Shown: positions 2,543 to 50,811 of the stretch, one piece after another
How the letters are laid out: every line of letters starts with the position of its first letter
Numbering within the stretch: position 1 is the first letter of the stretch
DNA from: an uncultured Lentisphaeria bacterium
GTDB lineage: Bacteria; Fidelibacterota; UBA8477; JABMPR01
Direction: 5' to 3'
Length of the DNA stretch: 64,000 nucleotides
NCBI GenBank assembly: GCA_964469505.1
Contig: CAYXZO010000003.1
Location: 820-64,819 of the forward strand
Program-made: the position numbers and the translations under genes
Notes under the pieces: model-generated
What the model was told of the DNA's origin: nothing
Seen by the model: the letters and a program-made list of their open reading frames with translations, nothing else
The model's database searches: none

Positions 2543-4792
2543 TTACTCCTCTTTTTCCGTCGGTAAAGCCCCGCGCCAGGATTCGGTTCCCGAATCGTCT
2601 TGGGGCCCAAGGGCACCGATCCAGGGTTCATAGGCCAGGCAGGGTGAATCTGGTTGGAGGAAAAACTCTTTAGACAACCGCGGATCGGCCTGGAAGTTAT
2701 TGCTTGCCGTATCCCACCAGCCGGACTGACCATTCCTCCAGAAACAATTAAAATCCAATGGCAAACCGCGTGAGGGGGTGATACGAAATAACTTCTGGTT
2801 TTTAATAAAAATATTCCGCTCAACTCCAACGGAAGTTGTCAAAGCATCCGCGAATACTAATCCGTTGCCCGCTACGGTGTTGTTATTGAACGCGAAATTC
2901 CCGGGTTGGGAAAACTGAAATAGCTCCCCGCTGCCGGCCAATATATTGTGTCGGAAAAAGACAGTTGCCGTTTGGCTTAAGCTGACCACCGGTCCCCGGA
3001 GGCGATAGAATCGATTGCCGAAAATTATCACTTTATCCGCTCTAGATAACCGGAGTGCTCTCGAGCCCCCCTGAAATCGGGAATGGCGCAGGTTCAATTG
3101 TTTGAGATCAACGCCTTCAATTCCCAGTTGCAGCTGAGTGAAATTGCAGTTATTGACTGCTACCAGTTTGTTTTCCCTCAGTTTCACTGCTAAAGGTATG
3201 GTATGAAACTGCATTTTTTCCATGGACATATTGCCTTGAACTAGCGATAGCCCAATATGTTTTACATTATTTAATATTCCACTCTGTAGGTGGAAAGTAC
3301 CGTTTTTCAGCAAAAATCCATAATCCGCCCCATAAACGGTATCCTCAACACTCTCACCTTTCTCGAAATCAGCCAATTCAACCGCAACCCTGTTGCCCTG
3401 AAAAAAGTTGTTTTTCATTGAGATAGTTCTGAGACTCCGACTCTTTAGGCCGTAGCTCCCACCTAAAAAGCGGTTAGAATCAAGATAGGCGGTTTGCGTG
3501 GTATCCACCATCAGGCTGGTGGAGTCCCCGGTGAAAACTGTACGCCAGATAAAAACCTGCCCATATTGTCTGACGTGGCCGCCTACGGCCATAGGACTGT
3601 CAATCAGCCCTTTAAACAAACGAGCCCGCTCCCCCTCTGTGAAGTAGGCTCCTCCTCCGGTGTTGTTTTTAAGCGCGGCTGCAATCAAGTCGGCACCTGC
3701 TATTCGCTTAATAGCCAGCCCCAAACCACCATTTAAAATGGCACTAAATCTACCAATCAGAACACTATCCCCTTTTTCGAACCTGAAACCATCACCGGCA
3801 TTATTTTCACTCCGAAGATTGGTTCCGGCGAAGCTGCCGAATTGATTCACCTGCAACCCGTGGGATTGGCCATCAAGAAATTGAATATGAGACATTTCTA
3901 TGCCTTTGACTTCCCGACAAAAAACACCCGCTCCGCCGTTCCGATGGAATTCCACATCCATGAGCAGCAACGAATCGCCGTCGCTAACCAGCAGTCCATT
4001 CCCTACCGTACGCTGGATACGGCTTTGTTCCAATCGGGAAATAGGCACCGACGTCAATACCACTCCATCCGCACCGATTTCATCTAGCTTCAATCCTACC
4101 AGACGTACACGCTCGACACGCCGCAGAAGTATGCCGAAAGTTTTTACGCGTTGCAGTCCCAGCTCATCCACCCATACCCCCGCAGCATTCTCAGCGACCA
4201 GGGCCGGGCCCTCGAGATCGTGAAAAGCTGCGGTTCTCAATCTCAGTTTTGATCCGCTGTTCAGCTGAATTGCCGGCCCCTGCAAGTGAGTAATTTCCAG
4301 ATCTTCCGCCCGGAGGTTCAGGCTGTCACCTTTGACCCCACCCAGGCGAAAACCTTCTATAAAGCAATCCTTGATTTCCACTATTGAACCGGGGGTAGCT
4401 TCAATGGCCCAGCGGCCACCGATGGACAAATCACAATGTTCCAGCCGCAGATAACCGCCCTCGACTCGAATCAGCGGCATGGTGTCGGTTGTTGCCCCCC
4501 GAAAAATCCAATCCCGCAGGATTACAACTCCATTGGATTTAATGATCAACGCCCCCATGGGGGCTGCGCGCCATACCGGTCTGCGCCGGGGATTGCCCTC
4601 CAAACGCAGCGTACGATCGACTACCATGGTGGTTTCAATAACAACACCCTGATAGCGATAGGCCAGAAACCACAGGGAGGGTTTGACTTGAGAAAGGCTG
4701 GAAATTTTGCGGGCCGGTTGGTGTTCCAGCCTCAGATTTGGGGCGGAACCGCAATTGAAAAGTAGGATACTGAACAAAACAGCCCCTAACAA
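2543..4792 (-). CDS. Large secreted right-handed parallel beta-helix repeat protein (pectate-lyase/NosD-like fold), function unknown
   Basis: Repetitive N/G-rich ~22-aa beta-helix repeats throughout the 843-aa ORF. The longest ORF start (5074) is impossible because it overlaps the SPOR gene and contains the tRNA-Sec. The likely start is the TTG at 4792-4790, giving M-LGAVLFSILLFNCGSAPN (signal/lipoprotein-like). The start codon is uncertain. Confidence 0.55.
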   Translation of the reverse strand: MLGAVLFSILLFNCGSAPNLRLEHQPARKISSLSQVKPSLWFLAYRYQGVVIETTMVVDRTLRLEGNPRRRPVWRAAPMGALIIKSNGVVILRDWIFRGATTDTMPLIRVEGGYLRLEHCDLSIGGRWAIEATPGSIVEIKDCFIEGFRLGGVKGDSLNLRAEDLEITHLQGPAIQLNSGSKLRLRTAAFHDLEGPALVAENAAGVWVDELGLQRVKTFGILLRRVERVRLVGLKLDEIGADGVVLTSVPISRLEQSRIQRTVGNGLLVSDGDSLLLMDVEFHRNGGAGVFCREVKGIEMSHIQFLDGQSHGLQVNQFGSFAGTNLRSENNAGDGFRFEKGDSVLIGRFSAILNGGLGLAIKRIAGADLIAAALKNNTGGGAYFTEGERARLFKGLIDSPMAVGGHVRQYGQVFIWRTVFTGDSTSLMVDTTQTAYLDSNRFLGGSYGLKSRSLRTISMKNNFFQGNRVAVELADFEKGESVEDTVYGADYGFLLKNGTFHLQSGILNNVKHIGLSLVQGNMSMEKMQFHTIPLAVKLRENKLVAVNNCNFTQLQLGIEGVDLKQLNLRHSRFQGGSRALRLSRADKVIIFGNRFYRLRGPVVSLSQTATVFFRHNILAGSGELFQFSQPGNFAFNNNTVAGNGLVFADALTTSVGVERNIFIKNQKLFRITPSRGLPLDFNCFWRNGQSGWWDTASNNFQADPRLSKEFFLQPDSPCLAYEPWIGALGPQDDSGTESWRGALPTEKEE

Positions 4793-4835
4793 CTTAAAGG
4801 GGCTGGTAAAATAAGCTGACCGATCAAAGAGTTTG

Positions 4836-4927
4836 CGGGAATGTATAGGAGTCGAACCTATCTGCCGGGTCCACACCGGCACAACAGCTTTGAAGGCTGC
4901 GGTAGCCACCGGGCTACAGACATTCCC
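4836..4927 (-). tRNA. selC: tRNA-Sec (selenocysteine tRNA), anticodon UCA
   Basis: Minus-strand read: GGGAATGT-CT-GTAGCC-CGGT-GGCTAC-C-GCAGC-CTTCAAA-GCTGT-(22-nt variable arm, GCCGG/CCGGC stem)-ATAGG-TTCGACT-CCTAT-ACATTCCC-G. The 8-bp acceptor stem and 6-bp D-stem are perfect, the D-loop is 4 nt, and the stems follow the bacterial 8/5 rule. Anticodon loop CUUCAAA and T-loop UUCGACU are identical to E. coli selC. No CCA is encoded. Confidence 0.85.
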
Positions 4928-5754
4928 TATTTCAAAGGAACGGGAAACGTGGACAATCCCAGTTCCTTTTGAAGTCTCAGACGATCCTGTTCCGCCTCCC
5001 TGCGGGTAGTATAACCGGTTATCCACACCAGGTAAAGGCGGGTCCCATGGCTGGTTCGAACTACAATTTTGCAATCCCGTCCGGTGCCCCTGATTTCCGA
5101 CAATAGAGCTTCAGCGTTATTACGTTTGCTGAAGGCCCCAGCCTGGAGGGCGTAATTCCCGTCACTCCGCTGCTCTTGTTCTACGGGTTCTCCCAGTTTG
5201 CGGGGGGCCGCTGCCGGAGCAGGGGCGGGAGCAGCCTCCGGAACCCGATCGAAAGCTTTCAACTCCTGGGGTACGTCGAATTCATAGCCTACAAATTGCC
5301 GTCGCGCCCAGGCCAAATCCACTTTACCACTGTCCAATAACCTGGCCGCGATATCAGCCCGTAACAATTGATTCATGGCGGTCTGAATGTAATCGGTGCG
5401 CCTCAGTTTTTTCAAGGCAGGTTTGAAATAGCGCCGGCACTGATGGTACAATCCCTGGGCATAATAGTACTGACCCAGAAAGTAATTTGAATAAACCGCC
5501 CAGCGAGTGCGAGGGTGATTCCGGACAATGGTTTTATAGATCCCAGCCGCCAGGGCCGCATTGCGGGTAGTACGGGCCTGGAGATACAACACCCCCGGAT
5601 GGCCGGGGTATCGGAAAGCCAGGCTATCCAGCGCCTGACGAACTTCCTTAAACCGTCCCGCCTCCAAAGCTTGCAGCAAAGGTGTCAGCTCTTGGGACAA
5701 AGCATTTGAAACCAGAGCACTGACCAGTAAACCGACTGCCAGCCACTTCCTCAC
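4927..5754 (-). CDS. SPOR-domain protein (septal peptidoglycan binding) with N-terminal signal/TM and TPR-like region
   Basis: C-terminal SPOR motif (YALQAGAFSKRNNAEALLSEI...YLVWITGYTTRREAE) and a Pro/Ala-rich linker. The probable start is the GTG at 5754, which overlaps the lapB stop as GTGA and yields MRKWLAVGLLVSALVSNALSQ. Confidence 0.7.
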   Translation of the reverse strand: MRKWLAVGLLVSALVSNALSQELTPLLQALEAGRFKEVRQALDSLAFRYPGHPGVLYLQARTTRNAALAAGIYKTIVRNHPRTRWAVYSNYFLGQYYYAQGLYHQCRRYFKPALKKLRRTDYIQTAMNQLLRADIAARLLDSGKVDLAWARRQFVGYEFDVPQELKAFDRVPEAAPAPAPAAAPRKLGEPVEQEQRSDGNYALQAGAFSKRNNAEALLSEIRGTGRDCKIVVRTSHGTRLYLVWITGYTTRREAEQDRLRLQKELGLSTFPVPLK

Positions 5755-20693: not shown

Positions 20694-21626
20694 ATGAAAA
20701 AAATCTGGTATGTACTCTTCAGCCTGGCATTACTGAGTGTTCCTTCAATGGCTGCCCAAAGGTTAGTGCTGGCGGAAGAGTTCACCAACGTTGGGTGACC
20801 ATCCTGCGGTCCCACTGAGGACTACCTGGACGGGTTCCAGGCACAACATCCCGAAAGCGTGGTTTTCATTGCTTACCACATGTCTTGGCCCCAAGGCAAC
20901 GACCCTTACTATCTGTACAACACTACTGAGAATAATGCACGGCGAAGCTATTATGGTGTCAATGCAACTCCCAGCTTAGCGGTCAATGGTTCGCTGACAA
21001 ATCTCTGGCCTCCGCAACCGGCGTGGGGTAATCTCATATTACAGGAAGCCACCATATCGGCGCCTATCAGCATTGACATTGGAGGGGCATATGACACAAC
21101 TGCTCGTCAGGGGACAGCGGAAATCGCCATCTTTACTGAAGGAACGGTGAGCGGTTCCTTCATCCTACATTTTGTCCTGATTGAGAACAATCTATACTTC
21201 ATGGGTGCCAATGGATATCCCAACCATAACAGTGTAATGCGCGACATGATTCCCTCTGCCGCCGGTACACAGATCACTTTAAGCGCAGGTGACACAACCT
21301 TCGCCAATATTGATTTCTCCGTACCGAGCCCCATCGTCCAAGGTAATGCGGTGTTGGTTGCGTTCGTCCAAAACCCGGTCAATAAGGATGTCCTGAATGC
21401 GGGGCGGGTAGCGGTGCTGGACCTAGCGACCGGGTGTGGCAACGCCATAGGGGATGTGGGGGCGGACGGGCAGATTACCGTGCAAGACCTGGTTCAACTG
21501 GTCAACATCGTCATCGGCATTGATAATGATCCCGACGCGTGTGCTTTACAAGCCGGTGATCTGAACGGGGATGCTCAGGTCAATGTACAGGATCTGGTCT
21601 TGCTGGTGGATTTGATTTTACAGTAG
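20694..21626 (+). CDS. Candidate selenoprotein: secreted thioredoxin-fold protein with U-x-x-C redox motif (in-frame TGA at 20796-20798) and C-terminal dockerin type I domain
   Basis: ATG 20694 opens MKKIWYVLFSLALLSVPSMAAQ (signal peptide), then RLVLAEEFTNVG-[TGA]-PSCGPTEDYLDGFQAQHPESVVFIAYH.... This reading frame is the same as the downstream ORF 20859..21626. A thioredoxin-fold cis-Pro motif (GVNATPSLAVNG) is present. Two dockerin calcium-binding repeats (DVGADGQITVQD, DLNGDAQVNVQD) sit at the C-terminus. selC lies in the same window. Confidence 0.6.
20825..20841 (+). promoter_or_regulatory. Candidate bacterial SECIS hairpin downstream of the in-frame UGA
   Basis: CCUGGA-CGGGU-UCCAGG is a perfect 6-bp stem with a G/U-containing apical loop. 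The loop starts about 33 nt after the UGA, within the 16-37 nt range used for bacterial SECIS elements. Confidence 0.4.
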
Positions 21627-22261: not shown

Positions 22262-22352
22262 GGAGAGGTGGCAGAGTTTGGTCGAATGCACCGCACTCGA
22301 AATGCGGCGTCCCGACGTCTCGGGACCGGGGGTTCGAATCCCTCCCTCTCCG
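22262..22352 (+). tRNA. tRNA-Ser (anticodon CGA), class II with long variable arm
   Basis: Acceptor GGAGAGG/CCTCTCC, anticodon stem-loop CCGCA-CUCGAAA-UGCGG, variable arm GTCCCGA...TCGGGAC, T-loop TTCGAAT. 91 nt, no encoded CCA. Confidence 0.85.
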
Positions 22353-22440
22353 CAAAAGCCCTGAACAGAATTTGGGATCATCAATCTGGATAGCGGACAT
22401 CCTCCGCTTTTTAAATTGGCCCTAGCCGGGAGTCATACTA

Positions 22441-22496: not shown

Positions 22497-25217
22497 CTAT
22501 TTGACCAGAAGCACCTTCAGGCTTTGATCACTTCCACTAGCTTTCAGCCGTACGAGATAGACGCCGGCAGGCATCGGCTGCCCCTGGGCATCAGTACCAT
22601 TCCACTGGACGGTATGATAACCAGCCGCCAAGGATTGCGATACCAGTGTGCGGACGAGGCGACCGCGGATATCGAACACTTGCAGGGTCACTTCGCTAGT
22701 AGCGGGTAAGCCAAACCGAATGTTGGTACTGGGGTTGAATGGGTTGGGATAATTACCAACCAGCTCGACATGGGTAGGAATCGCTATCGTATTATCTACC
22801 GCGTCAGTAAAGTGGATATTCGCCGCTGCGGCCACCGCATCGGCTAAAGTCATATCCGGAATATTATCCGCCGGGTCATCATTATGACAGGCCAGACAGA
22901 CGTGGTTCAAATCCAGCGAGGCAGGCCGAGTCGCGTCGTCCCGGACAGCAGAACCATCATCGGTGAACATGCTGTTATCATCGACAGTGATTCTAAAGAG
23001 ATGGGACCGGACATCAGCCTTGAAACCACTTTGGCCGCGAACTGCACCAGATTTTGCCGCATAGGGCATATGGCATTGTTCGCAATCGGTCATCTCGGGA
23101 TGGTTAGCAGCGACGCTGGTAGCCTCGTTGGCATGACAGGTGCTGCATTCAATCTTGATACCATCGCCACCCCAGAGTACTCGTTTATGGGGATCATGGC
23201 AGGTACCGCAGTTCAAACCGGCGGCAAAGTGCGGACTGGCTACAAATTCATCCCATTGCTCATGATGGCGCACAAAACCACCACTGGCATCAATGGGTTG
23301 GCCCCAACCGCGACTATGGCAATTACCGCAGAGATAGGTGATGTCATCAGCGTTCGGATCCGGTTGGACAACTCCACCATAGTCACCGTAATCCAGACCG
23401 TTGCCGCCAACATTGGGTTGGTATACCTCATCAATGTCCGCTGGATCGTGAGAAGCAACATGATTCCCACCAGGTCCATGACAATCTTCGCAGGCCACTC
23501 CGGCTTCTACGAAATTACCTAAGCTATACCCGGGCAGCCAGCTGCTATCGGGAGTCGCACCGGTGGTATGGCAGCGGAAGCAGCCGTAATTGTACTTTTT
23601 GTCTACGTGATCGACATCGTAGTCAACCCATCCGAGATCTTCGCCTTCGTAGAAATTAAACTGGTTGTGACCTCCACCAGGATTGATCACGCTGCTGGCG
23701 GTACCCGCGATCACACCAGTGGTATCTACGAAACGCACCTTCCACCCGTAACCGCCGATGACTCCCGCGATCTCATCCCAACTGGCACCTAAACCGGACA
23801 TCCAGCTATCTTCGAAGTTTACCACGAAACTGGGATAACTGGGGGCAGTGGCATTTTCAATAACGTGGAATTTGTACGGGTGACCACTATTCTGCCACTC
23901 CTCGTAGATGTTATAACCGAGGACATCATTCACTTCATCATGGCAAGCCCTACAGGTTTGGGAACCTACATAATCGGCCGGTTGGGCATCATGCATGTGA
24001 TGAGCGAATTCCGCCAGTTCATCCACCGTTTTGTCAGGAATGTCATCATTGGGATCATCGTTATGGCAGCTCAAGCAAGCATGATACAGGTCCAGTGAGG
24101 CTGGACGTGTATCATCGTCGCGCACTGCGGAGCCATCATCGGTAAACATACTCTCGGTATTGGGGGTAATGCGGAACAGGTGCGAACGAACATCAGCTTT
24201 GTAACCACTTTCTCCCCGGGCAGTACCTGATTTAGCGGCAAATGGCATATGACATTCGATACACTCGTGAGTGCCGGGGTGAATGTTGTGTGCTTCCTGG
24301 TTGGGATGACAGGTGGCACATTGTATAGTGATGCCGTCACCATTCCACAACACCCGTTTGTGAGGATTATGGCAAGTACCGCAGTTTAATCCAGCCTCGA
24401 AATGGGGACTGGCTACAAATTCATCCCACTGTTCATGATGGCGCACAAAGCCACCACTGGCATCGATGGGCTGCCCCCACCCACGGCTGTGGCAGTTACC
24501 GCATAGATAGGTAATATCATCCGAATTTGGATCGGGCTGGACCACACCGCCGTAATCGCCGTAATCCAGGCCGTCACCACCAATGTTTGGCTGATAAACC
24601 AGATCAATGTTGGTGGCGGAAGGCGCATTTACGTGGTCACTACCGGGACCATGGCAGGACTCGCAGGTTACGCCTTGCTCAACGAAAGTACCTAAACTGT
24701 AGCCCGGCAACCAGCTACTGTCAGGCGAGGCACCAGTAGTGTGGCAGCGGAAACAACCGTAGTTGTACTTCTTGTTCACGTGGTCCACATCATAGTCGAC
24801 CCATCCAAGATTCTCGCCGCCAAAGAAATTGAACTGATTGTGACCACCACCGGGGTTGATCACACTACTGGCAGTTCCCACAATTACACCCGTATTATCT
24901 ACGAACCTCACTTTCCAGCCGAAACCACCTATTACTCCAGCAATCTGATCCCAGGAGGTTCCCAGGCCAGACATCCAGGTATCCTCAAAGTTTACCACGA
25001 AACTGGGATAACTGGGGGCAGTGGCGTTCTCAATGACATGGAATTTGTACGGGTGACCGCTATTCTGCCAGGCGTCATAAATATTATACCCGGAACCGGT
25101 CACATCGGCGGTACCGTGACAGGCATTACAAGCCGCAGATCCCACATAGGTCTGAGCTAGTAATGTTGGTACCGTCAGAACGAGGAACGCACAGAAGAGT
25201 AGCTTTACTTTGTGCAT
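22497..25217 (-). CDS. Secreted hexadecaheme c-type cytochrome with T9SS C-terminal sorting domain
   Basis: Signal peptide and 16 CxxCH motifs: 8 per half (CNACH, CFRCH, CESCH, CGNCH, CGTCH, CATCH, CIECH, CLSCH; then CRACH, CFRCH, CEDCH, CGNCH, CGTCH, CSTCH, CEQCH, CLACH). The C-terminal ~75 aa (LQVFDIRGRLVRTLVSQ...GVYLVRLKASG...KVLLVK) matches a Por secretion tail. Confidence 0.85.
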   Translation of the reverse strand: MHKVKLLFCAFLVLTVPTLLAQTYVGSAACNACHGTADVTGSGYNIYDAWQNSGHPYKFHVIENATAPSYPSFVVNFEDTWMSGLGTSWDQIAGVIGGFGWKVRFVDNTGVIVGTASSVINPGGGHNQFNFFGGENLGWVDYDVDHVNKKYNYGCFRCHTTGASPDSSWLPGYSLGTFVEQGVTCESCHGPGSDHVNAPSATNIDLVYQPNIGGDGLDYGDYGGVVQPDPNSDDITYLCGNCHSRGWGQPIDASGGFVRHHEQWDEFVASPHFEAGLNCGTCHNPHKRVLWNGDGITIQCATCHPNQEAHNIHPGTHECIECHMPFAAKSGTARGESGYKADVRSHLFRITPNTESMFTDDGSAVRDDDTRPASLDLYHACLSCHNDDPNDDIPDKTVDELAEFAHHMHDAQPADYVGSQTCRACHDEVNDVLGYNIYEEWQNSGHPYKFHVIENATAPSYPSFVVNFEDSWMSGLGASWDEIAGVIGGYGWKVRFVDTTGVIAGTASSVINPGGGHNQFNFYEGEDLGWVDYDVDHVDKKYNYGCFRCHTTGATPDSSWLPGYSLGNFVEAGVACEDCHGPGGNHVASHDPADIDEVYQPNVGGNGLDYGDYGGVVQPDPNADDITYLCGNCHSRGWGQPIDASGGFVRHHEQWDEFVASPHFAAGLNCGTCHDPHKRVLWGGDGIKIECSTCHANEATSVAANHPEMTDCEQCHMPYAAKSGAVRGQSGFKADVRSHLFRITVDDNSMFTDDGSAVRDDATRPASLDLNHVCLACHNDDPADNIPDMTLADAVAAAANIHFTDAVDNTIAIPTHVELVGNYPNPFNPSTNIRFGLPATSEVTLQVFDIRGRLVRTLVSQSLAAGYHTVQWNGTDAQGQPMPAGVYLVRLKASGSDQSLKVLLVK
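22757..25088. repeat. In-frame tandem duplication (2 x ~1173 bp) within the cytochrome gene
   Basis: The two 391-aa protein halves are about 85% identical. Antisense shadow ORFs recur at an offset of exactly 1173 nt (23568 vs 24741; 23240 vs 24413). Confidence 0.8.
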
Positions 25218-35299: not shown

Positions 35300-35947
35300 A
35301 TGTTAGTAACTAAACCAGCACCTGACTTTAAAGCTATGGCAGTAATGCCGGATAATTCCTTTGAGGAGGTTCAGCTCTCCAACTACCGGGGACAAAAGGT
35401 GGTTCTATTTTTCTACCCCATGGATTTCACCTTTGTATGCCCTACTGAGATTTTGGCTTTCGACCATCGGCTGGAAGAGTTTAAAAAACGTAACGTGCAA
35501 GTGTTAGGGTGCTCCACTGACTCTCATTACAGCCATTTAGCCTGGAAAAACACCCCAGTAGATAAAGGTGGTATTGGTAACATTCAATATCCCCTGGTCA
35601 CCGACATCGATAAAACCATCGCTCGTGCTTATAATGTGTTGGTGGAAGCTAAGCCAGCTACTGTCTATGTAGATGAAGAAGGTGAAATGCTGACGTCAGT
35701 GGACGGAACCGTAGCCTTACGGGCTTCTTTCCTGATCGACGAGGAAGGCATTATCCGCCACGCGGTTATCAATGACCTTTCCTTGGGACGTAACATTGAC
35801 GAAATGCTGCGAATGGTGGATGCCCTCAGCTTTTATCAGCAGCATGGAGAAGTTTGTCCCGCCGGTTGGCAGGAAGGTCAAGAAGCTATGGAAGCCAGCC
35901 CTGAGGGCGTGGCCAAATACCTAGCCAAACACGCCCAGGAACTGTAA
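35300..35947 (+). CDS. Typical 2-Cys peroxiredoxin (AhpC/Tsa family)
   Basis: Peroxidatic Cys motif FTFVCPTEI and resolving Cys near the C-terminus (GEVCPAGW). 215 aa. Confidence 0.9.
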   Translation: MLVTKPAPDFKAMAVMPDNSFEEVQLSNYRGQKVVLFFYPMDFTFVCPTEILAFDHRLEEFKKRNVQVLGCSTDSHYSHLAWKNTPVDKGGIGNIQYPLVTDIDKTIARAYNVLVEAKPATVYVDEEGEMLTSVDGTVALRASFLIDEEGIIRHAVINDLSLGRNIDEMLRMVDALSFYQQHGEVCPAGWQEGQEAMEASPEGVAKYLAKHAQEL

Positions 35948-39926: not shown

Positions 39927-41447
39927 CTACTTTTCCTGGGCGCCTGGCAAGATGAGGGTGAAAGTAGTTCCCTTTCCAGGAGTAGAATCCACGGTGATTT
40001 TGCCGTGGTGATATTCCTCGACGATGCGCTTCACTAGACTTAAGCCTAATCCCCATCCACGGCGTTTAGTGCTCCACCCCGGCCGAAATATATTAGTCCG
40101 GTCCCGTGGTGCTATGCCCCGCCCCGTGTCAGAAACCTGGAGTATTACCTTCCCATTACTGCGCCGGGCAGTAATTTTAATCTTACCATCCTGGCTTTCG
40201 ATGGCATCTACCGCATTCTTCAAGAGGTTCTCCAGAGCCCAGCTCAATAATTCAGCGTTTATTAGCGCCTGAAGGCCCTTTTCCACATGAACACCGATTT
40301 CCAAGCTCTTCCCCCATTGTGGAGCTCGTTTGCGAATGTATTCCACCACTGGCCGAATCACGGAATCCAGAGGTAAGGGTATCAGGGTAACTCCCGCTCC
40401 GATGCGTGAAAAGCGCTCCGCAACTTTATTCAAACGCTCCGTATCCCGCTTGATCTCCGTTACCGCTTCAGCCACATCCGGCGCCAGATCCTTGCGCTCC
40501 AACAATTCGATCCACCCTAAAAGAGAAGAAAGAGGGGTTCCTAACTGGTGGGCGGTTTCTTTGGAAAGTCCAACCCACAATCCCCGTTGCTCAGCCATTC
40601 TGATGAATTGAAAACCAGCAAACCCTAATAATATGAATAACGCCACGATTGCTATTTCGATAAAGGGGAACCAGCGCAAGCTTCTGATTAACTCTGAATC
40701 ACCGTAATGAATGAACAACACCGGTTTGCCCTGAAATAGCACCGGCACGGGTTCATTCTGGGCATCCAACCAATGGACTTTTTCCAGAAGAACGGACTGC
40801 GAATCCACCCGCTTCAACTCCGGGATCGTGCTTTCAACCAGTTCCAGAGTATCCTGGGACTCCCGAGTAATAAGCAAGGGGAAGGAAATGTTGCGTACGA
40901 TCTCCCGTAAAACTGCCTCCAGGTTATGTTGCACTACCTCACCATAGTGGAGATACATAATGGGTTTTCCCTGGAATAGAATGGGAATCGGGGTATTGGT
41001 GGAGTCAAGCCGTTTGGCCAATCCCAGGAAATAGTCGTTCTGCTCACCTTTAGTCAGGCCCTGCGGCACCTTGATATTCTTCCAGGCATAGAGCTGCTCG
41101 GCGCCACGTTCCAGTACGGTTATGATCAAAGGGAAATCGATATTCTTGACGATATTGTTAAATACAAAACCGAGGTCAACATTTTCACTGGATAAAGCAT
41201 GGGCATAGAGTTCAGCGCTTTGTTGCAGAAACTTGCGCCGTTCCTCGCGGTACTGGCGGGCTAAAGCGTCGTTAGCCAGAGCATTGGCCAATAATCTGGA
41301 ACTTAAGGCCAGAAAACGTTTATTGTCCTGTCGTAATCGATTGACTAGGTTGTTGGTGTATAATAGGGACCCCAGAATGATGATGGCGGCCAGGAGAAAC
41401 AGCCCCAGCTTAATCCTCGAGCTTGTAAGGACTGTGGATCTCATCAC
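39927..41447 (-). CDS. Sensor histidine kinase (orphan) with duplicated periplasmic module
   Basis: TM, periplasmic region with two similar repeats (IPILFQGKPIMYLHYGE / VPVLFQGKPVLFIHYGD), second TM, H-box (HQLGTPLSSLLGWIELL) and HATPase_c (DTGRGI...GWGLGL). No adjacent response regulator. Confidence 0.8.
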   Translation of the reverse strand: MMRSTVLTSSRIKLGLFLLAAIIILGSLLYTNNLVNRLRQDNKRFLALSSRLLANALANDALARQYREERRKFLQQSAELYAHALSSENVDLGFVFNNIVKNIDFPLIITVLERGAEQLYAWKNIKVPQGLTKGEQNDYFLGLAKRLDSTNTPIPILFQGKPIMYLHYGEVVQHNLEAVLREIVRNISFPLLITRESQDTLELVESTIPELKRVDSQSVLLEKVHWLDAQNEPVPVLFQGKPVLFIHYGDSELIRSLRWFPFIEIAIVALFILLGFAGFQFIRMAEQRGLWVGLSKETAHQLGTPLSSLLGWIELLERKDLAPDVAEAVTEIKRDTERLNKVAERFSRIGAGVTLIPLPLDSVIRPVVEYIRKRAPQWGKSLEIGVHVEKGLQALINAELLSWALENLLKNAVDAIESQDGKIKITARRSNGKVILQVSDTGRGIAPRDRTNIFRPGWSTKRRGWGLGLSLVKRIVEEYHHGKITVDSTPGKGTTFTLILPGAQEK

Positions 41448-43954
41448 TCGGAGTTGCCGGTCCCCTTTCTATACAGATTGAAGCCTGCCAGGCCTGCTAA
41501 AAGCAGCACGATAAGTAAACTGGCACCGGTAATTATAAATCCCGCCCGTACTGCTGGTGGGTTATAGGTGAAAGTGATGGTGTGGCGACCAGCTGGCACG
41601 ATTACCCCCCGCAAAAGAGCATTCGTCTGAAAAATTCTCAACTGAGTGCCGTCTTCCAGTTCAGCATGCCAGCCATTGGGATAATAAATCTCACTTAAGA
41701 CTAAAAATCCCGGGGCCTGACATTGGGTTTCCACTGTGATTTTCTGGAGGTCGACTTTCACATCGAGCACCTTACCTCGTTGGAATTTATGTTGGCGGAA
41801 ATCTTCGTAAGCGGCTGTAACCCATGCTTGAGAGCCAGGATCGTAGGTCTGGGCCAGGTAAAAGGTGGGTTCGGAAACAACTCCCACCGAATCCACAAAC
41901 CAGGCCCGGGGAAAGGCTTCAGTGAAACGATATAAATAGGCTTGAAATGTCTGCCCCCTTGACCAGTGTGATAATGTTTTTTCCAGCTTAAACAACGGCT
42001 CAGGGATTGGATATGGCGAAACCAGATAGCGTACATTAAGCACTTTCAGCCAGAACAAATCTCGTCGACGCAACAAACTATCCACTTCTTCCAGGGTCCG
42101 CGGTCTGACGCCCTGCTCAGTTTGTCGGTAATACTTCAGTAGAAAACCCTGTTCCAGGTCAACCTGTTTCAGAAAATCCTGATAAACCGCCAGTTTAGCC
42201 GGACTGTATCCCCCTATGCTGGCCAGTCCATGAAAAGCCCATTCATTACTGCCAAACAGAGTAAAAACCGGGAAAATGCGCCCTGGAGTTGTTTCCAGCT
42301 GGGACTGCAAGAATTTGACTGTCGGTGAGGGTTGTTCCCAACGTTTGGAGGCAGCAGGGGATACGGCGGTACGGGTCAAACGTAAATCTATTCGCCCCAA
42401 ATCGGCCAGCGCCAACCCGGTGAGGAATACCGCTGCCAGAGCTACTTTTAGCCGTCCCCGCGCCGCAAACCACACCAGGCCAAAGGTGGTGATAGCTAGT
42501 AACAGACTCATGGTCAGTGATTGATAGAAAATCAGGAAACGTTGGCTGTCCAGCCGCGGATCGCTTTTTCCGGAACCAGCCACGGCTGTCTGGAAAGAAT
42601 CCTGGATGGTCCCTTTAAATAACAGCACCAGGATAAATAAGCCTCCGGCGATCCACAATCCCCACTGGAGGGATTTTAGCCACTCCTTAATTTTATCCTG
42701 CCGATCCAGCAGAGCCTGTAATCCGATTCCCGCCAGAATTGCCGCTAACAATTCCACCAGTATTAAAATCATTGACGGAACCCGGAACTTGCTGAAGTAA
42801 GGTAGATAGTTGAAAAACAGGTCATAGACGGGAGAGAAATACTTCCCAAACGAAATTAGAAGTGCTAACACCAGCGCTGAAAAAAGCAGCCATACTTGCC
42901 GCCGCAGGGGTTTATGGAACCAAGCTAAGATCATGAAGAAAAACACTACCACGCCTAAATAGTCCGAATGTTCAGTGAAAGGCCGCGCCCCCCAATAGGT
43001 ATGTCCTCCAAAACCAAACCAGTCGGGGACGACGAAAGCCAGCATTTCTTCTGGGGGAAAAGACCAGTTTGTAGCGTACGAATAACTAAGCCCTTGTGTG
43101 CCTCCTCCGCGGATGGAAAAGTGAGAATAGTTCCAGGCGGGCAAGTACAGCACTGCAGCTAGCCCAAGGGCCAATACTACCGCTGCTGCGAAATAGGCCC
43201 AGCGGAGCCCTAAAGCCCCCCAAGCTTTCTCGCGACCCATCCGAATTGTCTCCCACAGCACATACCAGCCCATGAGCATCCACCCGTAATAGGCAATCTG
43301 CACGTGTCCTCGTTGTAGCTGAAATCCTGCGACGCACGCTAAAAACACCAATCGCAACAGATCGGGTTTGCGGAATAGCTCATGCACCGCCAGTAACAGC
43401 CAGGGCAAATATGCCGCCGTCATCATTTGAGAGCCATGTCCAGCGGTGAGCATTACGACAAAAAAGGGCATCAGCATATAGGCGCCGCCACCCAACAGGC
43501 TCCCCAGAAATCCTATACCCCAGCGACGTAACAGCAGATAAACTCCCATCGCTGCCAGGAGGTAGTGCAAAGCCATTGTCCAGAGGGCTGGGAAACCCAA
43601 CAGACTGAACAGCCGAAGAACCCATCCCGGCATATAAACGAAAGGGGTATACATCAAACTGCCGAAAGAAGGCATACCGCTGAAGATGTATGGTTGCCAC
43701 AGAGGATATTCGTGATGCTCCTGCCAGTATAATTGGAGTTGATAACTCATGCCTCTAGCCGCCGTAGTATCCCCACCGGAAAAAACGTAACCCTTTAGAA
43801 AGACGGCGTTGAAAATAACCACGAGCAAAAGGATGAATATGGCTAAGGCCCGGACCCAATCCCGGCGCCAGATTCTTTGCCAAAGGGTATTGGCTTGTTT
43901 CGACTGATCTGCCGTATGTCCGGTACCATTTCTTTTCACCCCTTTAGGAACCAT
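41444..43954 (-). CDS. YfhO-family polytopic membrane protein (putative membrane glycosyltransferase)
   Basis: 836 aa with about 13 TM helices at the N-terminus and a large C-terminal extracytoplasmic domain. The N-terminal pattern (YVFSGGDTTAARGMSYQLQLYW...PLWQPYIFSGMP) resembles YfhO. Confidence 0.45.
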   Translation of the reverse strand: MVPKGVKRNGTGHTADQSKQANTLWQRIWRRDWVRALAIFILLLVVIFNAVFLKGYVFSGGDTTAARGMSYQLQLYWQEHHEYPLWQPYIFSGMPSFGSLMYTPFVYMPGWVLRLFSLLGFPALWTMALHYLLAAMGVYLLLRRWGIGFLGSLLGGGAYMLMPFFVVMLTAGHGSQMMTAAYLPWLLLAVHELFRKPDLLRLVFLACVAGFQLQRGHVQIAYYGWMLMGWYVLWETIRMGREKAWGALGLRWAYFAAAVVLALGLAAVLYLPAWNYSHFSIRGGGTQGLSYSYATNWSFPPEEMLAFVVPDWFGFGGHTYWGARPFTEHSDYLGVVVFFFMILAWFHKPLRRQVWLLFSALVLALLISFGKYFSPVYDLFFNYLPYFSKFRVPSMILILVELLAAILAGIGLQALLDRQDKIKEWLKSLQWGLWIAGGLFILVLLFKGTIQDSFQTAVAGSGKSDPRLDSQRFLIFYQSLTMSLLLAITTFGLVWFAARGRLKVALAAVFLTGLALADLGRIDLRLTRTAVSPAASKRWEQPSPTVKFLQSQLETTPGRIFPVFTLFGSNEWAFHGLASIGGYSPAKLAVYQDFLKQVDLEQGFLLKYYRQTEQGVRPRTLEEVDSLLRRRDLFWLKVLNVRYLVSPYPIPEPLFKLEKTLSHWSRGQTFQAYLYRFTEAFPRAWFVDSVGVVSEPTFYLAQTYDPGSQAWVTAAYEDFRQHKFQRGKVLDVKVDLQKITVETQCQAPGFLVLSEIYYPNGWHAELEDGTQLRIFQTNALLRGVIVPAGRHTITFTYNPPAVRAGFIITGASLLIVLLLAGLAGFNLYRKGTGNSE

Positions 43955-43974
43955 TACATTGCTCCTTTCTACTA

Positions 43975-45270
43975 TTAATAATACCCGAGTCCCTTAAGTA
44001 AATGCTCTATGCGATTTTGACCCATAAGTTCTAGATATTTATCGGCTTCCCGTTTGAGCAGCCCAAACTCTGAACCAGGGGATAAACAAAGATTACGCTC
44101 CTCCCGGGGATCCTTTTGCAAATCATAGGCTTCATGATTGCCATGGCCATGGGCGATCCATTTGAAACGACCATCGAATACACTGACCTGATCGTGGCGG
44201 AAAGGATCACCCGCCACCGGATCCAACTTATCGAGGCCAGCTAGAATTTCCACGGGTGTCTTCAGAAAAGCCAGTGCCAAGTTCCTTTTAGGCAAGAAAT
44301 TGGTACCATCAATCATATACTGCTTTACGGCTGGGAAGAGATCCTGATGTTGGATTAAATCCTTTACGGTTTCCCCTTTAGTTTGGGCTGGGAAATGCCA
44401 TAGTAGTGGAACATGCAATACTTCCTGGTATAAATTGAAAACATGGTGGAAATGATTATGCTCTCCCAGCAATTCCCCATGATCAGCCGTAATAATAACA
44501 ATTCCCTCGTTCCAGAACCATTCAACCAGCGGGAGCTGGAAAAGCTCTTCCAAACCATCGACCAAATCACTTATCTCCGCCTGATACAACTGCCGTAAGA
44601 TTTCCCAAACACCAGGAGCTAAAGTTCTTCCTTCCACATAGAAGTTGCGCCAGTCGTGATTTATTCGTTGTGCTTGCCGCCATTGATCTTCGCGGCTGGT
44701 ATTGAGGATCATCCTTTCCTTTTCAGGAGAAGGGCTGTATGGAGTATGGGGGCCGGTGAACTGAAGGAAAAGAAACAGACGACTTTTTATAAGCTGTTCC
44801 CCCAGGCCCCGCAGTATTTTTACTGTTTCAGTGAAGATCCTCTGCCCGGGAAGGATAATTCGCTCAAATCGCAACTCCTGTGATTGCTCGCTGAATTTTT
44901 CGGTGTCGCTCCATATTTCATAAAATTCATCAAACCCGCTATTCAAACCGGTGATGTTTCCCAGCAAAGGATTGGAAGCGATGCCGATATTGGTATAACC
45001 CTGCTCTTTTAGAAAGTTCATCAACGTTGATTTCGAATCAGTGAGTATGAGATGGCCCTCTTCAACTTGGTGTTCCGGGGGGATTAAGCCTGTGAACATG
45101 GAAGCGTGGCTGGGCGGAGTCCAGGGTGAGGGTGTATAGGCCTGTGTAAAAACATAACTTGTCTTGGCTAATCTGCCCAGGAACAAGTGTTGCGCTTTTC
45201 CGGTAGGGGAAAAAAGGGCGTCAAACCGGGTGGCGTCTAAGGAAATGAGAAGTATCGGTGGGTACTGCAT
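43975..45270 (-). CDS. Sulfatase-like hydrolase/transferase (alkaline-phosphatase superfamily); lacks the canonical C-x-P-x-R formylglycine motif
   Basis: Metal-binding N-terminus LISLDATRFD and a C-terminal ITADHGELLGEH motif. Cys is replaced by Trp and Arg by Ser at the sulfatase signature (PWTPPSHAS). Confidence 0.6.
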   Translation of the reverse strand: MQYPPILLISLDATRFDALFSPTGKAQHLFLGRLAKTSYVFTQAYTPSPWTPPSHASMFTGLIPPEHQVEEGHLILTDSKSTLMNFLKEQGYTNIGIASNPLLGNITGLNSGFDEFYEIWSDTEKFSEQSQELRFERIILPGQRIFTETVKILRGLGEQLIKSRLFLFLQFTGPHTPYSPSPEKERMILNTSREDQWRQAQRINHDWRNFYVEGRTLAPGVWEILRQLYQAEISDLVDGLEELFQLPLVEWFWNEGIVIITADHGELLGEHNHFHHVFNLYQEVLHVPLLWHFPAQTKGETVKDLIQHQDLFPAVKQYMIDGTNFLPKRNLALAFLKTPVEILAGLDKLDPVAGDPFRHDQVSVFDGRFKWIAHGHGNHEAYDLQKDPREERNLCLSPGSEFGLLKREADKYLELMGQNRIEHLLKGLGYY

Positions 45271-45309
45271 GGTGCTGGTTACGTTCAGCTAAGCTTCAAC
45301 CAACAAGTT

Positions 45310-46647
45310 TTAGCCTGTCTGTCGCCAATCCCGATAAATGGCTTTTGCAAGATCAACCCCCATTTTCCCGGGCCAGATCGGGCGCCACCAGGGCAAACCT
45401 GCTAAGTGCTGAAAGAGGAAAAGTTTGATAATCAAGCTTAAAGTATATGAGAGGCTGGTAGCCCAGGCAGCCCCATTGATTCCATATAAAGGAATCCACC
45501 ACAGATTTGCGCCTATATTTACTACTACCGTAAAAAGCCCAACCCAGAAATTGAGCTCCGGCCGGCCCCGGGCGGCCAAATCATTGGCTAAAACCCTACC
45601 TAGACTGCTGGCGGTTATTCCGGGAAGTAAATAAATAAGGGCAGTAGCGGAGAGTATATACTTTGTTCCAAATAATCCCCTTACCAGCGGGTGCGCAAGG
45701 AGAGCTAGCGCTATTGCAGCCAGTAAAGAAGCTAAGAAAGTAAACCCTCCGACTATGGCGGTGAGTCTCCCTTGCTCGGCTTTTACAGAATGTAGTTCAG
45801 CTAGCCGGGGAAATAGAGCGGTACTCACTGATTGAGACAAAAGCCAGAGCTTCTCTCCAATTTGAACAGCTACGATATATAGTCCTGCCGATGAAACTCC
45901 TGCCAGCATATTTACCAGTAGTAAATCGAGACGATAGTTCAGGAAGCCGATAATATTCCCCAGGTGACTTTTCCAAGCATAAGACAATAGCCGGCCCCAG
46001 GTAACGTCTCGTGGAGACGTCTCAGAACTGATTCTTTCCTGCTTGATTCTATGGATATACCAAATTGCTAGTAGCACTCCACCTAACTGACCAATGGTAA
46101 AAGCAGCCAGAGCCATTGCCGGGGAGGTTGTCACAAATGTCAACAAAATCCAGGCAGCCAATAACGCGACAGGAGGAAAAACCAAAAATACCAGATTGAA
46201 CCGCCACAGATCCCTAATCCCCAGCAAAATGTTAGGTAACAATTCCAGCAGGAGCAAAATCGGAAAAATAACCACACTGAAGATCAACAGATCTACTTCA
46301 ATTGACGGGAACAAGGTTTCGTGAAAGATGACCCCAATAATTCCTACCCCCCAGCCACCTATTGAAAGCACACCCCAAGCAAGCAAAGTTTTCTTTATAG
46401 CTGTCAGGAGGCTTAAATCTTTCTTAGCCAGGTGATACACTAGTGAAGGTCCCAGTCCCAAGTTCAACAATTTTGTCAACAATTGGGGTATTAACAGAGC
46501 CACACCGTATTCGCCATAGCCTGCTTTACCCAACCAGCGGGCCAACAAGATCGTATAGGCCAGCGATAAAACGGTAACCACAACCTGGCGAGCAAAAGTC
46601 CCAGAAATTTGAACCGTTAAAGGGCGCTTTGTAGAAATGATAGTCAA
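45310..46647 (-). CDS. Polysaccharide flippase (MOP/Wzx-like), 12-14 TM
   Basis: 445-aa polytopic membrane protein with a MATE-like / polysaccharide biosynthesis protein pattern. Confidence 0.7.
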   Translation of the reverse strand: MTIISTKRPLTVQISGTFARQVVVTVLSLAYTILLARWLGKAGYGEYGVALLIPQLLTKLLNLGLGPSLVYHLAKKDLSLLTAIKKTLLAWGVLSIGGWGVGIIGVIFHETLFPSIEVDLLIFSVVIFPILLLLELLPNILLGIRDLWRFNLVFLVFPPVALLAAWILLTFVTTSPAMALAAFTIGQLGGVLLAIWYIHRIKQERISSETSPRDVTWGRLLSYAWKSHLGNIIGFLNYRLDLLLVNMLAGVSSAGLYIVAVQIGEKLWLLSQSVSTALFPRLAELHSVKAEQGRLTAIVGGFTFLASLLAAIALALLAHPLVRGLFGTKYILSATALIYLLPGITASSLGRVLANDLAARGRPELNFWVGLFTVVVNIGANLWWIPLYGINGAAWATSLSYTLSLIIKLFLFQHLAGLPWWRPIWPGKMGVDLAKAIYRDWRQTG

Positions 46648-46656
46648 AATCGTACT

Positions 46657-47817
46657 CTATCCATTGAGTAAAATATCATAAAATTTAATTAGCCTAGAGA
46701 TGACCACTCTTTCACCGAAATGATCAAGAGCATATTTACGAATTGCTTTAAAATCGTATTTATTATATCTGCCGTACATTGTAACCATTGCTTTTGCCAA
46801 TTCGTCCGGATTATCACGTGGAACAAGAATCCCCGTTTCAGGATTAATGAATTCTTCCGGTCCGCCACTACGAGTGGCTATGACCGGTCGCCCCCTAGCC
46901 ATGGCCTCGATCAAAGTCACTCCAAAAGTTTCCGTACGGCTGCTGGAGATAACCACATTGTGGTTGTCCATCAATTCGAGTGCCGATATTCGGTTATCAG
47001 TTAAAAATGTTACGTCTTTGCTAAGATTTAATTTCACGCAAAGATTCTTGAGCGATGTTTCTTCCTGTCCCCATCCGGCTATTGTAAGTTTGGTTCCCTC
47101 GGGTAACGATTTTCTGGCCATAGCAAAAGCTTTCAGTAGAACGTCAAAACCCTTTATCGATCGCAGGTGGCCTATTGATAAAAACCTAAAGTTATCCGAA
47201 GGTGTATCAGACATAAATATAGTCTCGAATTCCTCACCGATAATATTCGGCAAAACATCCCAGTTGTTTTTCTCCAAATTAAACCGGCGTAGGATGCCAT
47301 TCATTAAAAACCTGCTCACAGCAAGGTTTAAATCAGAGGACATGAACACCTTTTTCGAAAGAATTTTATGCCACGGTGCCAGATCTCCTACAATCATGCG
47401 CGAGGAGTGCTCAGTTAACATTAAAGGCAATTTTAGATCTTTTTTAAGGCTCCTCCCCAGCACTCCCGCATACAATGTGGCGTGAGCATGGATCAGATCC
47501 GGCAAACCGAATTGTTCAATATATCTTTTGGCCAACTTTTTTCCGGCAAGTGTTAGGGTAAGGGCTGTCCCCCCCGGGACAAAAGTCAACCGATTAATCT
47601 GCTTTTGTTGGAAAAGTCGAGGATCACTAGCGCCAACTTCACGTTCAGTGTCGCCTTGATTATTTACCTCACCTTTATTCTGCAGATCGACATGGACGAC
47701 TCCAACCTCTATTCCATTTTTTCGAAGAGCCTCAACCTGTCTTTTAATGAAAATACCCTTAATAGGATTATTTATGCTGGGATACCACGAGGCTACAATG
47801 AGTATATGCACGTTCAA
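46657..47817 (-). CDS. Glycosyltransferase family 4 (GT-B)
   Basis: C-terminal motif ETFGVTLIEAMARGRPVIATRSGGPEEFI. Lies in the ~40% GC segment. Confidence 0.8.
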   Translation of the reverse strand: MNVHILIVASWYPSINNPIKGIFIKRQVEALRKNGIEVGVVHVDLQNKGEVNNQGDTEREVGASDPRLFQQKQINRLTFVPGGTALTLTLAGKKLAKRYIEQFGLPDLIHAHATLYAGVLGRSLKKDLKLPLMLTEHSSRMIVGDLAPWHKILSKKVFMSSDLNLAVSRFLMNGILRRFNLEKNNWDVLPNIIGEEFETIFMSDTPSDNFRFLSIGHLRSIKGFDVLLKAFAMARKSLPEGTKLTIAGWGQEETSLKNLCVKLNLSKDVTFLTDNRISALELMDNHNVVISSSRTETFGVTLIEAMARGRPVIATRSGGPEEFINPETGILVPRDNPDELAKAMVTMYGRYNKYDFKAIRKYALDHFGERVVISRLIKFYDILLNG

Positions 47818-48833
47818 CCCCGTTTAAGTAAAACGCGGTTGGCGATATAAGCTTTCAACCCCTCCCTTCGAACTCGTCGCCAGGGGCTGCTTTCAGGCTG
47901 TTCCACCTTATAATCAAAAGTTATTAAGGCTGATTTCAGATGCCTATTAATCAATTCCACTTCCAGAGCAGTAATCTCCTGTTGCCACGCTTTCAAACGT
48001 GCTTTACTGATACCAGTAAAAGTATTCCCGGTAACGCTGTTACCTCCCCAAGCATTGCCTAAAAAAGTTGGTTGAAGTAAAGTGGAGTGAAATTGTATCC
48101 CGGCCTGTTCCGCTAACTTATGCAATATTTCTTCCGGTTTAGTAACTAAATCTTCATATTTCACAACGAAGTAGTCATCCAAACTATATTTATTTTCCTC
48201 AGCAAAGAAATATGACCATTGGAGAGATCTCAAGATTTTATCGAGGTGAGGAAACCCTTTATCCATAGTTTGAAGGTATTTTCTTAATGTCACCAGATTA
48301 GCATAAGGGTTGCGGATAACATGAAAAAAAACAGCCTCAGGGTAGAGCTTCTTTAATCTTGCGGCGTGCTCAAAAGTACCCACCGTTTTTTCTACTACCC
48401 GCATATGTTCGGGCATCTGCGCATTGAACAAAGCCTGATATAGGGCCTCGAAATATCCGCGTATTAAGTTACTATCATCTGTCGATTCGATACTTTCGAT
48501 AGCTTTTTTGAATAGTTCTAAATTAAAAATCCCCTTGGCATCGCTATCGGCTAGCTTATTACCAATGCGATTCCTGACTTCAACCCATTCACATGCACTC
48601 CTGCGAAATACATTTATATCCCAATCCGATATCTTTTCCCAACTTCGTAAGGGATACCTAGTCCACCAATTAAGAATAAAATGAAATTGAGTCTCTATGG
48701 GCAAAACGAACAGCTCCGGGTGCCCATCGAACAAAGAACGTAATAAGCTGGTGCCGGATTTATGAGCACCGGAAATGAAAATAGGACGCCACATTGTCTT
48801 ATTCTTTTTAGTGTTCGTTTGTGTTCCCATCAT
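47814..48833 (-). CDS. Sulfotransferase (PAPS-dependent family)
   Basis: 5'-PSB motif PIFISGAHKSGTSLL plus a downstream 3'-PB-like region. The start probably overlaps the upstream stop as ATGA at 48833. Low-GC segment. Confidence 0.7.
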   Translation of the reverse strand: MMGTQTNTKKNKTMWRPIFISGAHKSGTSLLRSLFDGHPELFVLPIETQFHFILNWWTRYPLRSWEKISDWDINVFRRSACEWVEVRNRIGNKLADSDAKGIFNLELFKKAIESIESTDDSNLIRGYFEALYQALFNAQMPEHMRVVEKTVGTFEHAARLKKLYPEAVFFHVIRNPYANLVTLRKYLQTMDKGFPHLDKILRSLQWSYFFAEENKYSLDDYFVVKYEDLVTKPEEILHKLAEQAGIQFHSTLLQPTFLGNAWGGNSVTGNTFTGISKARLKAWQQEITALEVELINRHLKSALITFDYKVEQPESSPWRRVRREGLKAYIANRVLLKRG

Positions 48834-49951: not shown

Positions 49952-50811
49952 CTGGATGACCTTTTGAGTTTCATAATTATCAAAAGTCCTAAGTAATACA
50001 AAAACAAAACACCTTGACTAAATATTAGGACCGGCCACTGATACCAGCGCACCCAACGGCGATACAGCTTAAATATACCTTTGGCTTTACGCTTAATTTT
50101 TTTCCATGAAAAAGCATGACCGAAAGATGCTGAAACTTTATGATAAATCTTCGATTGGGGAACATAGTACAACCGATACCCTGCCCTTTTTAAACGAAGA
50201 GATAAATCAACGTCTTCTCCATACATAGAAAAGTTCTCATCAAAGCCTCCCAGGTCTTTAGCCAGGGGGAAAGGCATGGCAATACAGCACCCTGTTAGAT
50301 AATCGGTTTCTTCGGCTTCATCAATATCATCGGTGTCAATCGCCCTCAGCCGTTTATGGCCGATATATCCGGTCCACAAGTTTACCTGCCCCCCGCCATA
50401 CCAAATTCGATTGCTGCCGGCGTACAAAATCTTAGGAGCAACAGCTCCAGCTTCGGGTAATTGTCGTAGGGCCCTCACCAAAGGGTCAAGAAAATCAGCC
50501 TGCACTTCGGTATCATTGTTGAGAAACGCAACGTAGTCCGGTGGGGCAATAGTCTCTTCCAACGCACGCAAGCCAGCATTATTTCCCCCGGCAAAGCCCT
50601 TGTTCTCCTTCAATTTGACCCAATTGACGTTGGGAAAGCGTCGCTCATTTTCGGCCACAGAGTCATCGGTTGAGGCATTATCCACTACCCAAATGGTGAA
50701 ACGAGGATATGTGACCGCACTCAGGCTAGCCAGGCAATCTCCCAGCACCCTGGCACCATTCCAATTCAACACTAAAACGGCTACTGAAGGGGTGGTTTCA
50801 GGCGCCGACAA
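49948..50811 (-). CDS. Glycosyltransferase family 2
   Basis: VLVLNWNG...VVDNASTDDS and D.D motifs. 287 aa. Confidence 0.8.
   Translation of the reverse strand: MSAPETTPSVAVLVLNWNGARVLGDCLASLSAVTYPRFTIWVVDNASTDDSVAENERRFPNVNWVKLKENKGFAGGNNAGLRALEETIAPPDYVAFLNNDTEVQADFLDPLVRALRQLPEAGAVAPKILYAGSNRIWYGGGQVNLWTGYIGHKRLRAIDTDDIDEAEETDYLTGCCIAMPFPLAKDLGGFDENFSMYGEDVDLSLRLKRAGYRLYYVPQSKIYHKVSASFGHAFSWKKIKRKAKGIFKLYRRWVRWYQWPVLIFSQGVLFLYYLGLLIIMKLKRSSS

Follow-up and report, generated by a model that had tools for sequence, protein, structure and literature searches.

A canonical selenocysteine tRNA gene adjoining a SPOR-domain gene in an uncultured bacterium, and a predicted Omp28-related selenoprotein gene nearby

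Bacterial selenocysteine (Sec) tRNAs are set apart by a small number of structural determinants: the long variable arm and the discriminator base G73 for seryl-tRNA synthetase (SerRS), the D-stem for SelA, and the 13-bp helix for SelB (PMC13188914). In Alphaproteobacteria, among others, the gene of this tRNA, selC, can lie within selB (Mukai 2021, as cited in PMC13188914). Our literature search on Sec use in Marinimicrobia and on Omp28 selenoproteins found no paper on either subject.

A 64-kb stretch of DNA from an uncultured bacterium (hereafter, the window) was analysed because a tRNA-Sec gene had been proposed at positions 4836-4927. This gene is a canonical bacterial selC, already known in kind, and nothing about it falls outside known selC biology. 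With a probability of about 0.93, we take it to be the functional selC of a bacterium related to Candidatus Neomarinimicrobiota, having at least one client gene within the window. This reading is based on the agreement of two detectors, a cloverleaf fold, six syntenic orthologues, covariation at 22 of 28 stem pairs, and an in-frame TGA that is conserved and paired with Cys in homologous proteins.

Structure and covariation of the tRNA

The gene occupies 92 nt of the minus strand, from G1 at 4927 to the discriminator G73 at 4836 (minus-strand sequence, GGGAAUGUCUGUAGCCCGGUGGCUACCGCAGCCUUCAAAGCUGUUGUGCCGGUGUGGACCCGGCAGAUAGGUUCGACUCCUAUACAUUCCCG). As the original prediction had expected, ARAGORN returned a tRNA-SeC with anticodon tca, at 4835-4927(-); the sole other tRNA that it found in the window is a tRNA-Ser(CGA) at 22262-22353(+). 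When the whole window was compared with all Rfam families, the tRNA-Sec model RF01852 (gathering cutoff, 47 bits) matched 4837-4927(-) with 72.4 bits and an E-value of 6.8e-13, over model positions 1-91 of 91. The unconstrained minimum free energy (MFE) fold computed with ViennaRNA is a cloverleaf of -39.5 kcal/mol (z -3.3), and none of 200 shuffled sequences was as stable. The tRNA-Sec signal at 4836-4927 is far beyond chance. The MFE fold contains the following elements:

Acceptor stem: GGGAAUGU/ACAUUCCC, 8 bp
Connector from acceptor stem to D-stem: 2 nt
D-stem: GUAGCC/GGCUAC, 6 bp, with the 4-nt loop CGGU
Anticodon stem: 5 bp and a C-U mismatch, with the loop CUUCAAA
Anticodon: 4891..4893, minus strand, UCA, tRNA positions 35-37, at the centre of the 7-nt loop CUUCAAA
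Variable region: 22 nt, with a 6-bp stem and a 7-nt loop
T-stem: AUAGG/CCUAU, 5 bp, with the loop UUCGACU

All the stem and loop lengths that had been read from the letters alone (8-bp acceptor stem, 6-bp D-stem with its 4-nt loop, 22-nt variable arm, 5-bp T-stem) are recovered in this fold. The eighth acceptor pair is a Watson-Crick U-A, and the acceptor and T-stems together form a 13-bp helix, as in the 8/5 arrangement. CCA is not encoded, G73 being followed by CAAAC. Thus described, the segment has every structural feature by which the bacterial tRNA-Sec family is defined.

Related loci were then used for comparison. The locus itself was also recovered from public metagenome data, namely three from JGI and one assembly of Logan, where the gene calls comprise proteins only. 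A scan with MiaB, encoded upstream of the tRNA, against GTDB species representatives gave as closest relatives, at 55-63% identity, metagenome-assembled genomes of Candidatus Neomarinimicrobiota (Marinimicrobia). These MiaB relatives suggest, at the level of the phylum, that the uncultured host is a relation of Candidatus Neomarinimicrobiota (Marinimicrobia/SAR406). In six Neomarinimicrobiota genomes (L005-L008, L010 and L065 in our numbering), ARAGORN found an orthologous tRNA-SeC at the place that it has in the window, some 2.3 kb downstream of miaB. It found none in 22 more distant loci. One further relative, L027, has no tRNA-Sec within 10 kb of miaB, so that not every member of the phylum has the tRNA, or has it at this place.

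Eight tRNA-Sec sequences were aligned: those of the window, of the six relatives and of E. coli, the E. coli selC reference being 100% identical to the annotated tRNA-Sec of E. coli genomes. From this alignment RNAalifold predicted the cloverleaf, with double compensatory changes in 22 of the 28 stem pairs. Acceptor pairs 1-7 and the T-stem covary, the variable arm covaries strongly, and in the D-stem covariation is seen in 4 of the 5 pairs scored. No variation occurs in the anticodon loop, in the GGU of the D-loop, in the T-loop core or at G73. The closing pair of the anticodon loop is CG in four sequences, UA in three and AU in one. This covariation fixes the register of the 7-nt loop CUUCAAA with UCA at its centre and excludes a reading of the anticodon as CAA, the shifted register against which the original prediction had argued. 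Its identification of a minus-strand tRNA-Sec with anticodon UCA is thereby borne out by ARAGORN, RF01852, the MFE fold and the orthologue alignment alike.

The tRNAs of the relatives are not all equally regular. In L005-L008 and L010 they measure 94-95 nt, one base of the D-stem is bulged, and the eighth acceptor pair (A-G, C-A or G-A) is not Watson-Crick. The acceptor stem of these five consists of seven Watson-Crick pairs and one mismatch, which is not a clean 8/5. The stems are clean in the window and in L065. Judging from the aligned sequences, the five tRNAs are slightly less canonical than that of the window. The gene of L010 encodes CCA.

These data bear on whether the molecule could be something other than a Sec tRNA. 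It might be a class II tRNA, for Leu (CAA) or Ser, seen in another register, or an allo-tRNA or selC-derived suppressor that would insert Ser or Cys at UGA independently of SelA and SelB. The long variable arm and G73 do resemble those of tRNA-Ser, charging by SerRS is expected in either case, and unusual tRNA-Sec-like species with other identities reportedly occur in metagenomes. However, class II Leu and Ser tRNAs have a 7/5 arrangement and a D-stem of 3-4 bp, and in the present molecule the acceptor stem has 8 bp, the D-stem 6 bp with a loop of 4 nt, and the T-stem 5 bp. The covariance model, which could have favoured a class II tRNA-Leu or tRNA-Ser, instead left tRNA-Sec as the best model of the Rfam tRNA clan, 25 bits over its cutoff. 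The class II reading is ruled out by the 8-bp acceptor stem, the 6-bp D-stem and the UCA anticodon, which the covarying closing pair holds in place; G73 is invariant. As for a suppressor, TGA is the most used stop in the window, so that a general suppressor of UGA acting through EF-Tu would be harmful. A non-Sec identity is, on this evidence, extremely improbable, and the molecule is treated below as a tRNA-Sec.

Genes and signals around selC

The neighbours are those that had been named from the sequence, a SPOR-domain gene upstream (Pfam PF05036) and a beta-helix gene downstream (PF13229), with a hairpin after the tRNA:

4927..5754, minus strand: SPOR-domain gene with an FtsN-like C-terminus and a TPR-like N-terminus (Pfam SPOR; weak match to FtsN TIGR02223)
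4773..4805, minus strand: terminator-like hairpin 3' of the tRNA, with an 8-bp GC-rich stem (4798-4805/4780-4787), a 10-nt loop and UUUUGUU
2543..4792, minus strand: gene of a right-handed beta-helix protein of 749 aa, with corrected TTG start (Pfam Beta_helix and NosD)

The longest open reading frame of the SPOR-domain gene extends to 5817, and the JGI calls start at 5754 or 5775. Its TAG stop codon lies at 4929-4927, and the final G of this codon doubles as base G1 of the tRNA. In all seven genomes (the window and the six relatives), the distance from the stop of the SPOR-domain gene to the tRNA-Sec is between -1 and 56 nt. The one-base overlap is absent from the relatives, where the gaps measure 4-56 nt, and is therefore incidental. 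The order miaB, lapA-like gene, lapB-like gene, SPOR-domain gene, tRNA-Sec is shared with the six relatives. The placement of selC after the SPOR-domain gene is conserved within the phylum; it has no known significance. Downstream, a nickel superoxide dismutase-like gene (N-terminal HCQVPCGIY) replaces the beta-helix gene in L005 (13751-14242, minus strand of that contig), and with this different gene the synteny breaks exactly at the tRNA. In profile scans, no integrase or mobility gene was found adjoining the tRNA, as would be the case for a genomic island inserted at selC in the manner known from E. coli.

The position of the tRNA also settles the start of the beta-helix gene. The longest open reading frame of this gene begins at TTG 5074, a start that the original prediction had rejected because the extension contains the tRNA. 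This start is indeed an artefact of reading through the tRNA, and it would give the protein a false N-terminal extension of 94 codons. The first in-frame ATG, GTG or TTG beyond the tRNA is TTG 4792, which is used by three JGI gene calls (L001-L003); the N-terminus encoded from there, MLGAVLFSILLFNCGS, is a lipoprotein-like signal. In the Logan assembly (L004), the CDS was called from a GTG inside the tRNA, the sort of error that had been anticipated. The orthologous beta-helix gene of L065 likewise has an open reading frame extending through the tRNA, and the Cys-containing signal region is conserved in it. This lipoprotein-like region, KKLIQLAYLSFFAVSMMGC, is found at 13689-13745 of L065. No ATG, GTG or TTG occurs between the tRNA and the signal region in L065, which implies that translation there begins at ATT or ATC or in another unusual way.

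In the predicted fold, TTG 4792, the only plausible start of the beta-helix gene, sits in the loop of the terminator-like hairpin. A scan for consensus terminators found none near the tRNA, the 10-nt loop of this hairpin being larger than the 8-nt limit of the scan. In L010 and L005, the tRNA is followed by clear terminators, comparable hairpins that have runs of T. The predicted hairpin suggests that transcription of the SPOR/tRNA unit may end at 4773-4805. A promoter scan gave one weak sigma-70-type site, inside the SPOR-domain gene (5036-5008). With the terminator-like hairpin behind it, selC sits at the 3' end of a conserved cluster of lapA-like, lapB-like and SPOR-domain genes. Probably, it is transcribed in one of two ways: as the final cistron of the cluster transcript, in which case the tRNA would be freed by RNase P and 3' nucleases, or from a promoter within the end of the SPOR-domain gene.

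A bolder proposal can be built on the same arrangement. As 3'-terminal cistron of the envelope cluster, selC would be released by an RNase P cut at G+1 that removes the last base of the SPOR UAG codon; the SPOR message would become a non-stop mRNA ending in UA, and the hairpin would gate the beta-helix lipoprotein gene. The supply of Sec-tRNA would then be mechanically coupled to the expression of a septal peptidoglycan-binding protein. We regard this scheme as unlikely.

An Omp28-related gene with an in-frame TGA

Candidate clients of the tRNA were sought in the six frames of the window, as in-frame TGAs with long flanking coding sequence and redox motifs. One convincing gene was found, 16 kb from the tRNA:

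20694..21626, plus strand: Omp28-related predicted selenoprotein gene of 310 codons, encoding a signal peptide, an EEFTNVG-U-PSC redox motif, an Omp28 domain and a dockerin-like C-terminus
20796..20798, plus strand: in-frame TGA, predicted Sec codon 35, at the first position of the UxxC motif
20808-20823, plus strand: hairpin 1 of the SECIS-like region, GGUCC-CACUGA-GGACU, 9 nt past the UGA
20825-20841, plus strand: hairpin 2 of the SECIS-like region, CCUGGA-CGGGU-UCCAGG, 26 nt past the UGA

The translation around the codon reads LVLAEEFTNVG-TGA-PSCGP, and the peptide spanning the predicted Sec position is FTNVG-U-PSCGPTEDYLDGFQ. Public gene callers divide the gene into ORFs of 34 aa and 248 aa. 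The protein matches Pfam PF11551 (Omp28) over residues 84-241 with 57.7 bits, above the gathering threshold of 34.9, and NCBIfam NF045500 (Omp28_seleno) with 59 bits, below the cutoff of 200. By these profile scores, the client falls outside the NF045500 equivalog, which NCBIfam names 'Omp28-related selenoprotein', and is a divergent protein related to this known type of selenoprotein.

In full-length homologues retrieved by database search, the position of the TGA is occupied by Cys, the first Cys of a CxxC motif: EEFTNVGCVPC, ENFTNTSCGPC (in a protein annotated as Omp28-related, from Zixibacteria) and FFSNSGCQPC. The closest homologues have been called as N-terminally truncated proteins, and their DNA shows an in-frame TGA. 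Four orthologues, with identities of 47-86%, retain this codon within the motif FTN[VSA]G-U-P[SY]CGP, and the protein is conserved on both sides of it. A signal peptide is encoded upstream of the TGA in each orthologue where the contig reaches that far.

Both hairpins that follow the UGA are conserved as well. Hairpin 1 shows a double change from U-A to C-G in the orthologue L088, and the pairing of hairpin 2 survives an A-to-G change (U-A to U-G) in L087, despite amino-acid replacements. The region around the UGA gave no match to Rfam SECIS families, and the local fold energy after the UGA was no better than that of shuffled sequences. The two hairpins (20808-20841) can be proposed as a putative SECIS element.

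The original prediction held that the tRNA establishes the decoding of UGA as Sec in this organism. The tRNA alone does not establish it; it is the tRNA and the client gene together, with the conserved TGA of the latter, that make the claim a strong one, and UGA is very probably read as Sec in the Omp28-related gene. Since no ordinary stop codon is used more often than TGA in the window, the recoding would be site-specific and would not correspond to a global reassignment of UGA.

No selA, selB or selD was found among the approximately 55 ORFs of the window, in NCBIfam and Pfam scans covering essentially all ORFs of at least 150 aa; given that this is a 64-kb piece of a genome, their absence is uninformative. 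Two ORFs of suggestive size were identified as other proteins, one of 454 aa (SelA-sized) as HflX and one of 642 aa (SelB-sized) as a double-transmembrane-domain protein. It could be argued that selC is a relic, intact but unused after loss of selA, selB and selD, and that the TGA merely truncates or inactivates the Omp28-related gene. The lack of any Sec machinery gene within the 64 kb and the treatment of the Omp28-related gene as two ORFs by public gene callers would fit such a view. It should, however, be noted that bacterial sel genes are frequently unlinked to selC. Moreover, genomes with MiaB identities of only 55-63% have all kept the tRNA, its stems showing compensatory changes, which indicates continued purifying selection on its structure, and the TGA and its flanking coding sequence are maintained in orthologues down to 47% identity, unlike what is seen in a pseudogene. 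A relic is thus very improbable, and a functional selC with a selenoprotein client remains the preferred reading.

The other TGA candidates of the six-frame search were rejected. The frame that joins 59937-59359 and 59322-58819 belongs to an ECF sigma factor followed by a zf-HC2 anti-sigma factor, in the same frame by chance; these two minus-strand genes (59359-59937 and 58819-59322) are separated by a TGA and 12 codons and so mimic read-through. The TGA at 1749 comes before the true start of the next gene (ATG 1653), and the remaining candidates are on the antisense strand of real genes.

Some other genes of the window may be mentioned for their content. The minus-strand gene 22497-25217 encodes a 906-aa protein with multihaem cytochrome c motifs, a partial match to NF041198 ('UshA-like (seleno)protein') and a type IX secretion system (T9SS) C-terminal sorting domain; no in-frame TGA was found in it. 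Its T9SS domain points to a host of the FCB group having a type IX secretion system. A 1-Cys-type peroxiredoxin (AhpC/TSA, with a 1-cysPrx_C domain) is encoded in its Cys form by an uninterrupted ORF at 35300-35947(+); this family has Sec forms elsewhere. A polysaccharide-biosynthesis cluster at 41444-55197(-) comprises genes of a YfhO-like membrane protein, a sulfatase, a flippase, several GT1, GT2 and GT4 glycosyltransferases, a sulfotransferase and a TPR protein, which suggests a sulfated surface polysaccharide.

Proposed pathway and comparison with known systems

By analogy with the bacterial Sec pathway, the following route can be proposed. The transcript would be trimmed to the 92-nt tRNA and, because CCA is not encoded, this end would be added after transcription. 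SerRS would charge the tRNA with serine by way of the long variable arm and G73. Then, SelA would convert Ser into Sec with selenophosphate provided by SelD, the 6-bp D-stem with its 4-nt loop being the SelA-specific feature. Finally, SelB-GTP would bring the Sec-tRNA to UGA codons followed by a SECIS hairpin; the 8 + 5 = 13-bp acceptor/T helix would be the feature specific for SelB and excluding EF-Tu. The client would be the secreted Omp28-related protein, which resembles thiol oxidoreductases and carries a U-x-x-C motif.

This selC marks the genome as that of a very probable Sec user, which is mildly useful for selenium surveys of marine and sediment bacteria. For annotation, it means that some TGA 'stops' of the host genome may be Sec codons, the Omp28-related gene offering one concrete case. 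No concept is changed by it, and it makes a small addition to surveys of distribution.

The client gene can be compared with the families that it resembles. As in NF045500 and PF11551, it has an Omp28 domain, and the first position of its N-terminal CxxC, which is like a thioredoxin motif, is filled by the predicted Sec. Its C-terminus is dockerin-like, in contrast to the T9SS sorting tail of its Cys homologues.

The tRNA itself closely resembles E. coli selC, with which it shares the 8-bp acceptor stem, the 2-nt connector, the 6-bp D-stem, a 4-nt loop of the CGGU type, the 5-bp T-stem and G73. The anticodon loop CUUCAAA and the T-loop UUCGACU are identical in the alignment, as had been predicted, and both molecules have a long variable arm with a stem of the 6-bp class. 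The gene is 92 nt long in the window and 95 nt in E. coli, because CCA is not encoded in the former. The anticodon stem has 5 bp and a C-U mismatch, compared with 6 bp in E. coli, and the stem sequences differ almost everywhere, in a compensatory manner. The context is also different, since the selC of the window follows a SPOR-domain gene and is not free-standing as in E. coli. In sharing nucleotides with a coding gene, it recalls the selC genes that are nested in or overlap protein genes. However, compared with selC nested in selB, the overlap is here limited to one base, the final G of a TAG stop codon, and the partner is an unrelated SPOR-domain gene.
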